46,454 nucleotides of DNA from Shigella phage Sf11 SMD-2017: the sequence record MF158038; one strand, written 5' to 3'. The notes under the pieces are model-generated. The model was not told the origin of the DNA, searched no databases, and saw only the letters and a list, made by a program, of their open reading frames with translations. A program made the translations under genes and the position numbers. Shown piece after piece: positions 30,707-43,432 of this stretch. Each line of letters starts with the position of its first letter. The first letter of the stretch is position 1.

Positions 30707-31405
30707 TCATACTCTTTCTTCTTGCGTTTTGTTTTTCCCATGATAGCCTCTTGCGCTGCGAAGAAGTGAATTAAACAGATTGCTCACATTTACTTCCTGA
30801 CCCTTCCATGAGTAAGACCACAGCTTCTTGTGGTTGTCATAGCTTCGCGTCACATCACCGTTGTGAAACATGATGCGTATTCGGCTTTTCACGATTCGGT
30901 AATCAATGCCAGTGGCAGCGCTGATTTCTTTCACTTCCGCGCCAGCGTTATCAAGCAAATGGCACTTAATCGCATCATCAATACCAGCGGCATCATCAGA
31001 GATGAAGTATTTATACTGCCACTTACCACCACGAATCACTGACTTCTCGCGGCGAATAAAGCCAAGCGCAAGCATCTCATGCAAACGATGTGTTGTGGTG
31101 CTTGAATGCTTTCCTCCGCAATGCTTTTCAATGTATGCACGCGTTGCGCCGGGATGCATCATAATCACGCGCATGATTTGTGATTTATAGTCCATAATCA
31201 CGCTCCTCTGCCGCCTGATTGAAGTCATCGGCGGTGTAGAGGTGTCCGTTGCGTGTGTTCCATTTCCTTGTTGCGCACATTTTATCCATGCACGACTTTG
31301 ACCTTGCATCACACTCATTGCATTCTGCGTGCCATCCATCATCGTATTCAAGGCAATCAACATCTGGCGAACCGCAGAATGGACACTCCAGCAATCCTTC
31401 ATCAT
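30707..31405 (-). CDS. Putative winged-helix DNA-binding protein (likely start near 31195)
   Basis: HTH-like segments (RAYIEKHCGG...HRLHEMLALGFIRRE; EISAATGIDYRIVKSR); the ORF-track N-terminus overlaps the upstream gene in another frame. Confidence 0.4.
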   Translation of the reverse strand: MMKDCWSVHSAVRQMLIALNTMMDGTQNAMSVMQGQSRAWIKCAQQGNGTHATDTSTPPMTSIRRQRSVIMDYKSQIMRVIMMHPGATRAYIEKHCGGKHSSTTTHRLHEMLALGFIRREKSVIRGGKWQYKYFISDDAAGIDDAIKCHLLDNAGAEVKEISAATGIDYRIVKSRIRIMFHNGDVTRSYDNHKKLWSYSWKGQEVNVSNLFNSLLRSARGYHGKNKTQEERV

Positions 31406-31442
31406 TCATCATTGGCATATATGGCGCTGTCATTTTAACCAT
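31185..31442 (-). CDS. Zinc-ribbon protein resembling Lar-type restriction-alleviation proteins
   Basis: CPFCG...HAECNECDAR...WNTR pattern (CxxC...CxxC zinc ribbon) in an 85-aa protein. Confidence 0.4.
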   Translation of the reverse strand: MVKMTAPYMPMMNDEGLLECPFCGSPDVDCLEYDDGWHAECNECDARSKSCMDKMCATRKWNTRNGHLYTADDFNQAAEERDYGL

Positions 31443-31624
31443 TCTCCTAAGTTGTTAAATTTAGGCACATCACCAGACCAGTCGATAACATCTTTCTGCT
31501 GGCTGCGCTTGCGTTGCAGGCGGTTGCGCACTTCACGAAGTTCGCACTCAAGCCATTCTCGCGTGCGCTCAACTTCATTAAGTCGCTGGATTAGCGAGTT
31601 TTCGTACAGTTCGTCATGCGCCAT
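31430..31624 (-). CDS. Hypothetical coiled-coil protein
   Basis: ORF track. Confidence 0.4.
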   Translation of the reverse strand: MAHDELYENSLIQRLNEVERTREWLECELREVRNRLQRKRSQQKDVIDWSGDVPKFNNLGEWLK

Positions 31625-31912: not shown

Positions 31913-31981
31913 TCTACGTCAATAAGTATTGACTAAGTGACGTAGAAACGTCAAGATGTTTTTCGAGAAGGAGTAGTAAAT

Positions 31982-32176
31982 ATGCCAAGACCACGACGAG
32001 AGCCGATGGACATTATCACCAGCATTGTGGAGAAGCGACAGCCGCTGACACTCCGTGATGTTCGCTACTTTGCCCGTTGCTACGTGGCACTGGCTGATAT
32101 GCCAAAGGATGAGATGTATGATTTGATTCGCGACAACTTCAGTGTTGATGAAAATAATCGAGTGAGGATGAAATGA
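31982..32176 (+). CDS. Hypothetical protein
   Basis: RBS gaaggag upstream of ATG 31982; first gene of a plus-strand island. Confidence 0.5.
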   Translation: MPRPRREPMDIITSIVEKRQPLTLRDVRYFARCYVALADMPKDEMYDLIRDNFSVDENNRVRMK

Positions 32177-32781
32177 AAAAGTGGAAATACCTGAAAGGTT
32201 GCGAGAATGATTTTAACGGCCATAACACGGCTGTCCTTGTGGTTAAGTCAGGACGAACCGGTATGATTCACTATTTAAGTTGCTGTTACGCAGGGAGAAT
32301 CAGCGACATCGAAGGTGCTGGAGATATCGTAATTGCCATTCGCGTACCGGTGAATGACGAACAAGACCTCAACGAATGCATTGGCGCACCGGAAGCTGAT
32401 GTGAAGCGAGGCGGCTTTACTCCCAACACCACATTTGTTGGCGGCCTCAACCCTGATCCATCAATTATGGGTGTTCCATTGCGGGAAATCGATGGCGCAG
32501 AAACCGTAACTTACCCAGGCGTTGATGCGCTAATCACCGAACGCGGCAGCCGTTACGGCAAATTCAAAGATGGCGCTGACATCATGCAGTCATTGAAAGA
32601 TGTTATGCGCGAAGTTGATGGCTGGCACAACCTGACGCCAAGCCAACGCGAGGCGCTAGACATGATTCAGCACAAAATTGGACGCATCCTGAACGGCGAC
32701 CCGAAATATGATGATAGCTGGAAGGATATTGCTGGCTATGCGACGTTAATTGTTAATGAACTGAACGGAGAGATTAAATAA
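32173..32781 (+). CDS. Hypothetical protein with conserved C-terminal helical region
   Basis: ORF track; ATGA coupling; C-terminal segment SQREALDMIQHKIGRILNGDP...DSWKDIAGYATL. Confidence 0.5.
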   Translation: MKKWKYLKGCENDFNGHNTAVLVVKSGRTGMIHYLSCCYAGRISDIEGAGDIVIAIRVPVNDEQDLNECIGAPEADVKRGGFTPNTTFVGGLNPDPSIMGVPLREIDGAETVTYPGVDALITERGSRYGKFKDGADIMQSLKDVMREVDGWHNLTPSQREALDMIQHKIGRILNGDPKYDDSWKDIAGYATLIVNELNGEIK

Positions 32782-33224: not shown

Positions 33225-33250
33225 CCCCATTGCGGGGCTTTTTTCATCCC
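33225..33250. terminator. Bidirectional terminator (agccccattgcggggct + T-run)
   Basis: GC hairpin with T-run. Confidence 0.65.
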
Positions 33251-33585
33251 TTAAACTTTATCCAGCCGAACATCCTGACACCAAGCCACATAACGCCAGC
33301 CCTCAACGATGATACTCCGCTATCCTTCAGCGCCTGCCTGAAGCAATCATCAGCGAAATGCCTGTCTGAATGGGTTGCATACAGATAATCATGAACGGCT
33401 GCCGCTTTCTGCCCCACATCACCAATAAAAGCAAACAGGTAAGGAAATCGCGGAACGCTGGCGAAATCAGTGCGAAATCCTGCTGGCACTTTTATTTCCT
33501 GATGCCGAAACTCATAGATTAGCGGCTCAATTAGTGTCCACGTTGAGTTTTTGTTCAGCTTGACGATAAGGTCTGATTTGAACAT
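33244..33585 (-). CDS. DUF1353-like protein
   Basis: GFRTDFASVP motif typical of DUF1353 phage proteins; 113 aa. Confidence 0.5.
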   Translation of the reverse strand: MFKSDLIVKLNKNSTWTLIEPLIYEFRHQEIKVPAGFRTDFASVPRFPYLFAFIGDVGQKAAAVHDYLYATHSDRHFADDCFRQALKDSGVSSLRAGVMWLGVRMFGWIKFKG

Positions 33586-41400: not shown

Positions 41401-42825
41401 TTATCGCCTGCGACGGATTAGCATTCCGCTACCGCGCTGAACGATATGGTCTCCAAGGCCATATCGTAAACTATCAATCGCGTGATTGTATTTATCAACT
41501 ATGTCGGGGAGTATGTTCCCTGTTAATTTATCCACCTTGTAGCTGTACATTGTCATTTCTTCAATAACGTGCTTGCATCTTGAGTGTACGTAAATCCTGT
41601 CACACCCACGAAGCCATGTAATACCATCTTCAATACTCCCCGGCCATTTTGCGCACGGATGAATATCGAATCCAGATCGGCGTATATGGCTTATTGTCTC
41701 AGGGCGAGCGCAATCCCCATACCATCTGTACTTTTCTGAATTTGGGAAGGCCGAGCGCATCGCCTCCGGTGTGTCAGTTATCTCGAGACCAACCTTTGCA
41801 AAGTCGCGGTAGATATACAGGTTTCTTCTTCCGCCGCCCAAATCCTCGACATAAGATTCAGTTGCTGCCGTAGCATCCTGTGAGAAACCAAAGTCAATAC
41901 CATAGTAAGGCCCGCCCCAATCTGGCGACGGCTCAAAATCAAGAGTCTGCCATTTACCCCCAAGCACAGCTTCATCTGAACGCCGGTTAAATAACCCCTC
42001 ATAAACCCACAGATAGCGATCATAATCAACCGCCTTCATCTGGTTCATATGCTGTTTAAGTTCCTCGGTAAACCAGGGGTTATGGATGTAGTTAACGTTC
42101 ACAACGACAATATCATCATCCTGATATATCCCATCAACCATCTTATCCACATACGGCTCAACAAAGTTTGTCCACGTGGGATCGGTTTCCCGATTGGGGT
42201 TAAAAACAATAATAATTTCAGAGCCAGAGGCGCGAACTGTAGGAATGAGTGTATCCCATGACACCTGACTAATGTTCTCCGACTCCTCGCAGAACACATC
42301 GGTAAGTCCAGCCATCCCTTTAATGGCCGTGATGTTGCGCCACATGCCCCGGAATACGAACTTTGACCGCGTGCCGTGGTGGGTTATCTCGCCATCGACG
42401 CACCGGTATTCCTGAGCGTGTCCCTTCCTGTTAATTTCATCGACCAGCTCGGCGTAGCTGGACTCCTTGATTGAGTTCTGAATTTCCCGGAAGCAGCCAA
42501 CCCTGCAATTTCTGAATCTTGCCTTTTCGATAAGATAGGAAACGACGTTAGCCGTTTTGCCGCTGCCCCTTCCGCCATAGAAGACCTTAAACCGGCGCGG
42601 ATAAAGCAAAAGCTCCATGCGTTCAGGGATTAATATTGTTGGCTCTTCAGTTGTCTCTGATACGCCATCTTGAGTCATTTTAAGTCGCTTGATAACATTT
42701 GGCGTGCCATCATCAAGCAGCTTATCGACAATGCCGAAAACAGCAGAGTCTGGCTTCTCCATGGAGTTACCAACCGCTTCTTCCAGCTTTTCGATTGCCA
42801 CACTTGAGAGTCTTTTTCTAGCCAT
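41401..42825 (-). CDS. terL: Terminase large subunit
   Basis: Walker A YGGRGSGKT; C-terminal nuclease motifs (GIDFG, DKYNHAIDSLRY); 474 aa. Confidence 0.9.
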   Translation of the reverse strand: MARKRLSSVAIEKLEEAVGNSMEKPDSAVFGIVDKLLDDGTPNVIKRLKMTQDGVSETTEEPTILIPERMELLLYPRRFKVFYGGRGSGKTANVVSYLIEKARFRNCRVGCFREIQNSIKESSYAELVDEINRKGHAQEYRCVDGEITHHGTRSKFVFRGMWRNITAIKGMAGLTDVFCEESENISQVSWDTLIPTVRASGSEIIIVFNPNRETDPTWTNFVEPYVDKMVDGIYQDDDIVVVNVNYIHNPWFTEELKQHMNQMKAVDYDRYLWVYEGLFNRRSDEAVLGGKWQTLDFEPSPDWGGPYYGIDFGFSQDATAATESYVEDLGGGRRNLYIYRDFAKVGLEITDTPEAMRSAFPNSEKYRWYGDCARPETISHIRRSGFDIHPCAKWPGSIEDGITWLRGCDRIYVHSRCKHVIEEMTMYSYKVDKLTGNILPDIVDKYNHAIDSLRYGLGDHIVQRGSGMLIRRRR

Positions 42826-43348
42826 GATTAAAAAACTCCCCGTGATGTTTCTCTCTTTCTTCCATTATCTTTTTGACTGCATCTTCAATGTTGGCGAACC
42901 TGCCAAGATTAACCATCCTGCCATTTATATTTAATCTTGCCATCCACTTGCATCTTGATTTATCCCAATACACACCCTTAACCCCTGACGTGTTGTTTGC
43001 CTGTAGCTTTTTGTTGTAACCATTTTGTTGATGGTCAGCCTCTCGCAGATTAACAAAACGATTATCAAGCGTATTGTTGTTTATGTGGTCTATTTCTTTT
43101 TCAGGCCAACTACCAGTCATATAAAGCCAAGCCAGCCTATGCGATCTATACCACTTTCTTCCAAAATGAATATAGTGATACGGTCGCTTGCTACCAACGG
43201 TGCCGCATAATTTTATTGTTCCTGCTGGCTTCCCGGGCTTAGCCCTTCCCTGCTTGTGTGGGTTTTTCCATGTAAAAATTCCGGTGTCAGGATTGTAATC
43301 AAGGATGTGTTTTAATTCTGCTTGCGTAAGCATATATAGATTCCTCAT
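42818..43348 (-). CDS. HNH homing endonuclease with AP2-like domain, between terS and terL
   Basis: HRLAWLY...EIDHINNNTLDNRFVNLR...DHQQN HNH motif; GVKGVYWDKSRCKWMARL AP2-like motif. Confidence 0.75.
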   Translation of the reverse strand: MRNLYMLTQAELKHILDYNPDTGIFTWKNPHKQGRAKPGKPAGTIKLCGTVGSKRPYHYIHFGRKWYRSHRLAWLYMTGSWPEKEIDHINNNTLDNRFVNLREADHQQNGYNKKLQANNTSGVKGVYWDKSRCKWMARLNINGRMVNLGRFANIEDAVKKIMEEREKHHGEFFNHG

Positions 43349-43432
43349 CAGGGCATCATTGAAGTGAATGCGGCAGGCGGTGATGAGTCGCTTTTCGGGT
43401 GCCCCCTAGCCGCATTAATTATTATAAATCAG

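Follow-up and report, generated by a model that had tools for sequence, protein, structure and literature searches.

The window, by which we mean the whole stretch of 46,454 nucleotides analysed here (Shigella phage Sf11 SMD-2017, MF158038), is essentially a complete virulent siphophage genome of ~46 kb from the Skatevirus/Swiduovirus/Saltrevirus cluster. Escherichia phages swi2, Sa179lw and C1, the BASEL phages Bas77-81 and many Salmonella phages are its relatives, and the DNA flanking the gene under study is ~87-91% identical to theirs. This gene, which encodes a small predicted zinc-ribbon protein of the Lar restriction-alleviation family, is the third of eight small, tightly packed and mostly overlapping minus-strand genes that extend from ~31912 down to 29762. 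The leftward operon begins at a divergent intergenic region of 70 bp and heads toward the head-gene block; a previous, sequence-only reading of this DNA had placed the gene in a cluster of small minus-strand genes. Apart from a MarR-like gene, the remaining operon genes fall in PHROGs of unknown function. The position and the translational coupling of the Lar-like gene are kept in relatives. The features at the locus are:

31925..31954 (-), candidate weak sigma-70-like promoter, TTGACG-18-AATACT, in the divergent intergenic region at the operon head
31430..31624 (-), upstream gene of 64 aa, phrog_15697, unknown function; its stop overlaps the start of the Lar-like gene as ATGA, as it does in swi2
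31185..31433 (-), coding sequence of the Lar-family protein with a predicted zinc ribbon, 82 aa plus stop, from the ORF, PF14354, PHROG 599, Rac Lar/RalR homology and an AF2 model
31371..31433 (-), conserved N-terminal segment, residues 1-21 (MTAPYMPMMNDEGLLECPFCG), from column entropy and pN/pS
31374-31385 (-), first predicted zinc knuckle, C17-P-F-C20, within the N-terminal segment
31263..31370 (-), hypervariable centre, residues 22-57, from entropy, indels and 47 distinct centres in 61 loci
31311-31322 (-), second predicted zinc knuckle, C38-N-E-C41, within the centre
31251..31262 (-), WNTR motif, residues 58-61, from alignments; invariant in the subfamily and equivalent to WNKR in Rac Lar/RalR
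31188..31250 (-), conserved C-terminal tail, residues 62-82 (NGHLYTADDFNQAAEERDYGL), from low entropy, pN/pS and AF2
30707..31195 (-), downstream MarR-like winged-helix gene of 162 aa, phrog_1687; its start overlaps the 3' end of the Lar-like gene by 11 nt

The 85-aa minus-strand ORF at 31185..31442 that the sequence-only reading had described does translate to MVKMTAPYMPMMNDEGLLECPFCGSPDVDCLEYDDGWHAECNECDARSKSCMDKMCATRKWNTRNGHLYTADDFNQAAEERDYGL and contains CPFCG, ECNEC and WNTR, but initiation most likely occurs 9 nt further in. The upstream ATG at 31442 yields 85 aa and a second in-frame ATG at 31433 yields 82 aa. We prefer the start at 31433 because this ATG shares ATGA with the TGA of the upstream 64-aa ORF and has a GGAG 10 nt before it, because homologues in databases start at the equivalent MTAP/MSAP, and because the orthologue of phage swi2 is annotated with the identical 4-nt overlap. 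The winged-helix regulator suspected next to the gene was also found: 30707..31195 matches phrog_1687 ('MarR family transcription regulator') at 1.3e-57, and Pfam MarR_2 at 19.2 bits, which is under the 27-bit cut-off. In the mechanical ORF list this 162-aa gene is over-extended to a 232-aa ORF, 30707..31405. In a promoter and terminator scan of the region, counts were not above shuffled expectation, and the promoter assignment at the operon head is for this reason tentative and no more than a lead.

The proposed Lar-family identity of the protein was upheld by several lines of comparison. Pfam PF14354 (Lar_restr_allev) matched over profile positions 2-58 of 58 with 29.3 bits against a gathering score of 28.6 (E 1e-6), that is, by a margin of only 0.7 bit, and PHROG 599 ('Lar-like restriction alleviation protein') matched residues 9-83 at 4.9e-15. 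The NCBIfam models, in contrast, did not reach their cut-offs: the TIGR03655 anti_R_Lar subfamily scored 33.6 bits against 39.6, and the NF007260 RalR equivalog, the second-best NCBIfam match, 26.7 bits against 113. As comparison protein served Lar/RalR of the Rac prophage of E. coli K-12 (gene lar/ralR, b1348, 64 aa). BLASTP aligned the two proteins without gaps over 53 aa with 32% identity (E 4e-10), pairing both CxxC knuckles and the WN[TK]R motif, and hhalign of a profile of 28 subfamily members against Rac Lar/RalR gave a probability of 97.5% (E 8e-12). Because of these profile and alignment matches, the protein is assigned to the broad Lar family (PF14354), and not to the narrower NCBIfam subfamily or the RalR equivalog. 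We found 104 homologues at E<=1e-3, nearly all of 78-89 aa and on contigs of 45-49 kb; about 95 of the 104 carry a precomputed PF14354 match. Orthologues at the same locus are already called 'Lar-like restriction alleviation protein' in RefSeq, and the gene of the window is a rather divergent allele. A profile search of the six-frame translation detected no second Lar-like gene in the window.

The predicted structure agrees with this assignment. An AF2 model of the 82-aa protein has a mean pLDDT of 85, with values >90 for residues 11-60, and shows two beta hairpins and a helix at residues 51-59 (pLDDT >90); a helix at residues 68-80 of the C-terminal tail is modelled with low confidence. We can confidently predict a single C4 zinc ribbon (CxxC...CxxC), followed by a helix that ends in W-N-x-R. 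Across the subfamily alignments W58-N-T-R61 never varies, and the cysteines C17/C20 and C38/C41 vary hardly or not at all. Foldseek neighbours in BFVD are mostly named 'restriction alleviation protein, Lar family', with weak E-values (>=4.5e-3) that are explained by a query of only 82 aa. The PDB sequence search returned no homologue, its sole match being the aIF2-beta zinc ribbon at E 0.16.

Rac Lar/RalR, the founding member of PF14354 and TIGR03655, shares with the window protein the single C4 ribbon and the arrangement CPFCG...C-x2-C...WN[TK]R at the same spacing, and both are encoded by small accessory phage genes. In contrast to Rac Lar, the window protein is extended by 8 residues at the N-terminus and by a tail of 21 residues at the C-terminus, both of them conserved. 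The window gene belongs to a virulent phage and lies beside a MarR-like gene, whereas Rac Lar lies downstream of recET and has an antisense sRNA, ralA. Much closer are the Lar-like genes of Skatevirus, Swiduovirus, Saltrevirus and others (swi2 gp62, Vi II-E1, IME207, Bas77-81), which are orthologues in PHROG 599 and occupy the same slot between the phrog_15697 gene and the MarR-like gene, with the same overlaps and the same conserved termini. The window allele differs from them in its rare centre cassette with three extra cysteines.

For Rac RalR, a toxic, non-specific DNase activity that depends on Mg/Ca has been reported, with an sRNA as the antitoxin (PMC4041452). The homology to RalR, whose equivalog is the second-best NCBIfam match, and the reported toxicity and in vitro DNA cleavage of RalR could indicate that the window protein, too, is a non-specific DNase, either a toxin or a factor that degrades host DNA. 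We consider this improbable. A K52Q change abolished the DNase activity of RalR (PMC4041452), and the residue that pairs with K52 in the window protein is Thr60, at a position held by T in 101 and by S in 3 of the 104 subfamily members. Six RalR positions are relevant to toxicity: the window protein is identical at N51 alone and similar at T37, and three of the six lie in hypervariable columns. The equivalog score stays far from its cut-off, and a zinc ribbon of 60 residues would offer no recognisable nuclease active site. Rfam found no RNA near the Lar-like gene and no RalA-like or other antitoxin RNA family anywhere in the window, a result that has to be read with the caveat that Rfam may lack a RalA model. 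The DNase reading is rated low because the K52 equivalent is Thr60 and no antitoxin-like RNA was found; of the marks of a RalR type I toxin, namely equivalog score, K52 and cognate antisense sRNA, none was found here.

The Lar-like gene is under strong purifying selection. Nei-Gojobori proportions were calculated for 61 IMG/VR loci and for metagenomic loci of the closest alleles. Over all pairs, pN/pS was 0.16 in the N-terminal segment (pS 0.72) and 0.23 in WNTR plus tail (pS 0.55), and within centre-cassette types it was 0.12 in the N-terminal segment, 0.21 in the centre and 0.16 in the C-terminal segment. Between the window and its nearest allele, P0001 (94% amino-acid identity), the centre has accumulated 7 synonymous changes in 19.3 sites and 2 non-synonymous changes in 88.7 sites, which corresponds to a pN/pS of ~0.06. 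A chance ORF or a decaying remnant devoid of function, for which nothing but the small size of the gene could speak, is excluded by this selection analysis: pN/pS stays at 0.06-0.23 in all three segments despite nearly saturated synonymous divergence. The 104 homologues with their conserved cysteines, the conservation of position and translational coupling in relatives, and alleles that keep a complete frame even where an HNH gene has replaced their tail (see below) point the same way.

This constraint is combined with an unexpected partition of variability. Among the 104 homologues, column entropy is mostly <1.5 bits at residues 1-21 and 58-78, but 2-3.5 bits, with indels, in the ribbon body at residues 22-57, where only C38, C41, T/S45, A54 and two hydrophobic positions are retained. 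The conserved termini fall outside the 58-residue Pfam domain and are absent from Rac Lar. The 47 distinct centres of the 61 loci form ~15-20 deeply diverged types. Identical centres occur with different terminus types, as in locus L020 compared with L041/L064, and hybrid centres exist, such as that of P0008, in which a first half of the window type is joined at the CxxC knuckle to the second half of another type; each of these patterns shows recombinational shuffling. Relaxed constraint was considered as the cause of the variable centre and rejected, given the within-type pN/pS of 0.21, and we found no pN/pS >1 within cassette types that would signal positive selection on the centre. Since each type is under purifying selection, the centre types are old, maintained variants rather than products of relaxed drift.

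The centre cassette of the window (SPDVDCLEYDDGWHAECNECDARSKSCMDKMCATRK) is rare, with a best match of 73% in GenBank phages and no counterpart among the 61 IMG/VR loci; the closest match to the window allele anywhere is P0001 at 94%. The three extra cysteines of this cassette type, C27, C48 and C53, are kept in P0001, P0002 and P0006, and together with H35 they are conserved in the same-type alleles P0001, P0002, P0006 and 64795_sal3. These cysteines and H35 might constitute a second metal site or disulfides.

Several relatives have a free-standing gene for an HNH_3 homing endonuclease of 173 aa inserted directly after WNT(R). The insertion point corresponds to the R61/N62 codons, at ~31248-31253 of the window. 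The related loci that bear it are:

L072:2504-3251
L061:2462-3248
L063:2495-3230
L077:3001-3748
L078
L079

The invaded Lar ORFs end in a diverged replacement tail, GGFVYSxxDYEDINxEV(RS), and their reading frame stays complete, while the HNH ORF terminates in frame with the original Lar tail of the lineage (...GHIYTAEDFNQAAEERDYVL or ...GHLYTADDYKQDAMERANGL). Alleles with the insertion have various centre cassettes and come from Salmonella-type as well as Klebsiella-type lineages. In the window, the allele lacks the homing-endonuclease gene and retains the presumed target site. Co-conversion associated with homing could help to shuffle the neighbouring centre cassettes. In the closest relatives, L073, L074 and L075, which carry the window-type allele P0001, an HNH_3/AP2 endonuclease gene at 557-1057 lies between Rz and the rightward small-gene operon; the corresponding place in the window holds a different ORF of 113 aa, 33244..33585. 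Around the Lar-like locus, mosaicism thus arises repeatedly from mobile endonucleases. In our literature searches, no earlier description of the cassette-type variation, of the subfamily-specific conserved termini or of the HNH insertion was found.

What this protein does is best approached through its relative in the Rac prophage. According to King & Murray (1995), Rac Lar reduces EcoKI restriction and raises the modification of unmodified DNA, as does lambda Ral, to which it is unrelated. [quoted passage not shown] We propose, with a probability of roughly 0.45, that the window protein is small and Lar/Ral-like, is directed at the host and modulates type I (family IA) restriction-modification. 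It is translated as the third cistron of the translationally coupled leftward operon of small accessory genes and would target the type I methyltransferase/HsdM complex. The consequence may be partial alleviation and faster modification instead of a block of restriction. The conserved N- and C-terminal segments could hold a function common to all alleles, and the variable ribbon surface (residues 22-57) might set partner specificity. Cassette diversity shuffled between lineages counts in favour of this proposal, because such diversity would be expected of a protein that touches variable host partners. Lambda Ral would be a functional analogue only: to our knowledge, its sequence is unrelated to the Lar family and contains no zinc ribbon.

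The phenotypes of related phages set limits to the strength of such an effect. Bas77-80 carry orthologues, with other centre cassettes. In the BASEL work, their efficiencies of plating were 0.02-0.2 on EcoKI (for which Bas77 and Bas78 have one site each), about 2e-4 to 1e-3 on EcoCFT_I, and no higher than 1e-5 on type II and III systems. [quoted passage not shown] Any protection is therefore at most partial, or specific to systems outside the BASEL panel. The orthologue is, by these phenotypes, not a strong general anti-restriction device, and a Ral-like partial or allele-specific effect is not disproved by the same values.

The genome itself carries traces of restriction. Over the whole window there is 1 EcoKI site (AACN6GTGC) where 6.8 are expected (P ~0.01), and there are 4 StySPI sites where 9.9 are expected; EcoBI sites, with 14, occur about as often as expected. 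Type IA restriction is, by this shortage, a real selective pressure on the phage, and selective site avoidance is part of its answer to it; the single EcoKI site also counts in favour of the modulator proposal. For other recognition sequences, the whole window holds 5 EcoRI sites (16.2 expected), EcoAI (5) and EcoRV (11) sites at expectation, and 9 StyLTIII-type sites, which are over-represented (4.1 expected).

The anti-restriction role would derive from one characterised homologue, Rac Lar, at 32% identity, and literature searches for biochemical or structural Lar studies returned none beyond King & Murray 1995 and Guo et al. 2014. It is quite possible that the protein is a Lar-fold zinc-ribbon adaptor with a target other than type I restriction-modification, such as a defence system of a different kind, a transaction on host DNA or RNA or some process of the phage itself, and that 'restriction alleviation' is annotation transfer only. 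The homology to Rac Lar is significant and spans the whole ribbon, which argues against this alternative, and positive evidence for any specific other target is lacking. As it stands, the gene bears out a routine annotation and is one further allele of a family that was named from a single genetic study of 1995. The BASEL members of this phage group, however, grow on E. coli K-12, and the group provides natural variants of the cassette while the scaffold stays constant. Knockouts and the exchange of cassettes in these phages could show what Lar-like proteins bind and whether the name 'restriction alleviation' fits.

A more far-reaching reading, which we regard as rather unlikely, is that specificity is modular and the gene a polymorphic anti-defence locus. 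A constant scaffold, consisting of the N-terminal segment, the zinc knuckles, WNTR and the C-terminal tail, would carry exchangeable centre cassettes, each matched to a different host partner, for example different type I restriction-modification families or other defence proteins. The cassettes would be swapped by recombination, possibly promoted by the HNH homing endonuclease if this enzyme targets the WNTR/NGH junction. If true, the locus would be a phage-side analogue of target-recognition-domain shuffling in HsdS.

Several observations elsewhere in the genome deserve mention. The divergent rightward operon includes a 202-aa protein at 32173-32781 (+), with a DUF6378-like C-terminal domain (26.3 bits against a cut-off of 27.1), that is ~40 residues longer than the 163-aa phrog_17775 and swi2 versions. 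Two adjacent tRNA genes, Ser(GCT) and Arg(TCT), lie at 20558-20727 (+) and are probably the reason for megablast matches to unrelated phages, Stx-converting ones among them; the supplementary table of the BASEL collection gives 0 tRNAs for the related Skatevirus isolates. At 43353-43416 (-), adjoining the start of the ORF 42818..43348, we found an Rfam int-alpA RNA (RF02996) with 42.6 bits against a gathering score of 35.8, which is unexpected in a virulent siphophage.
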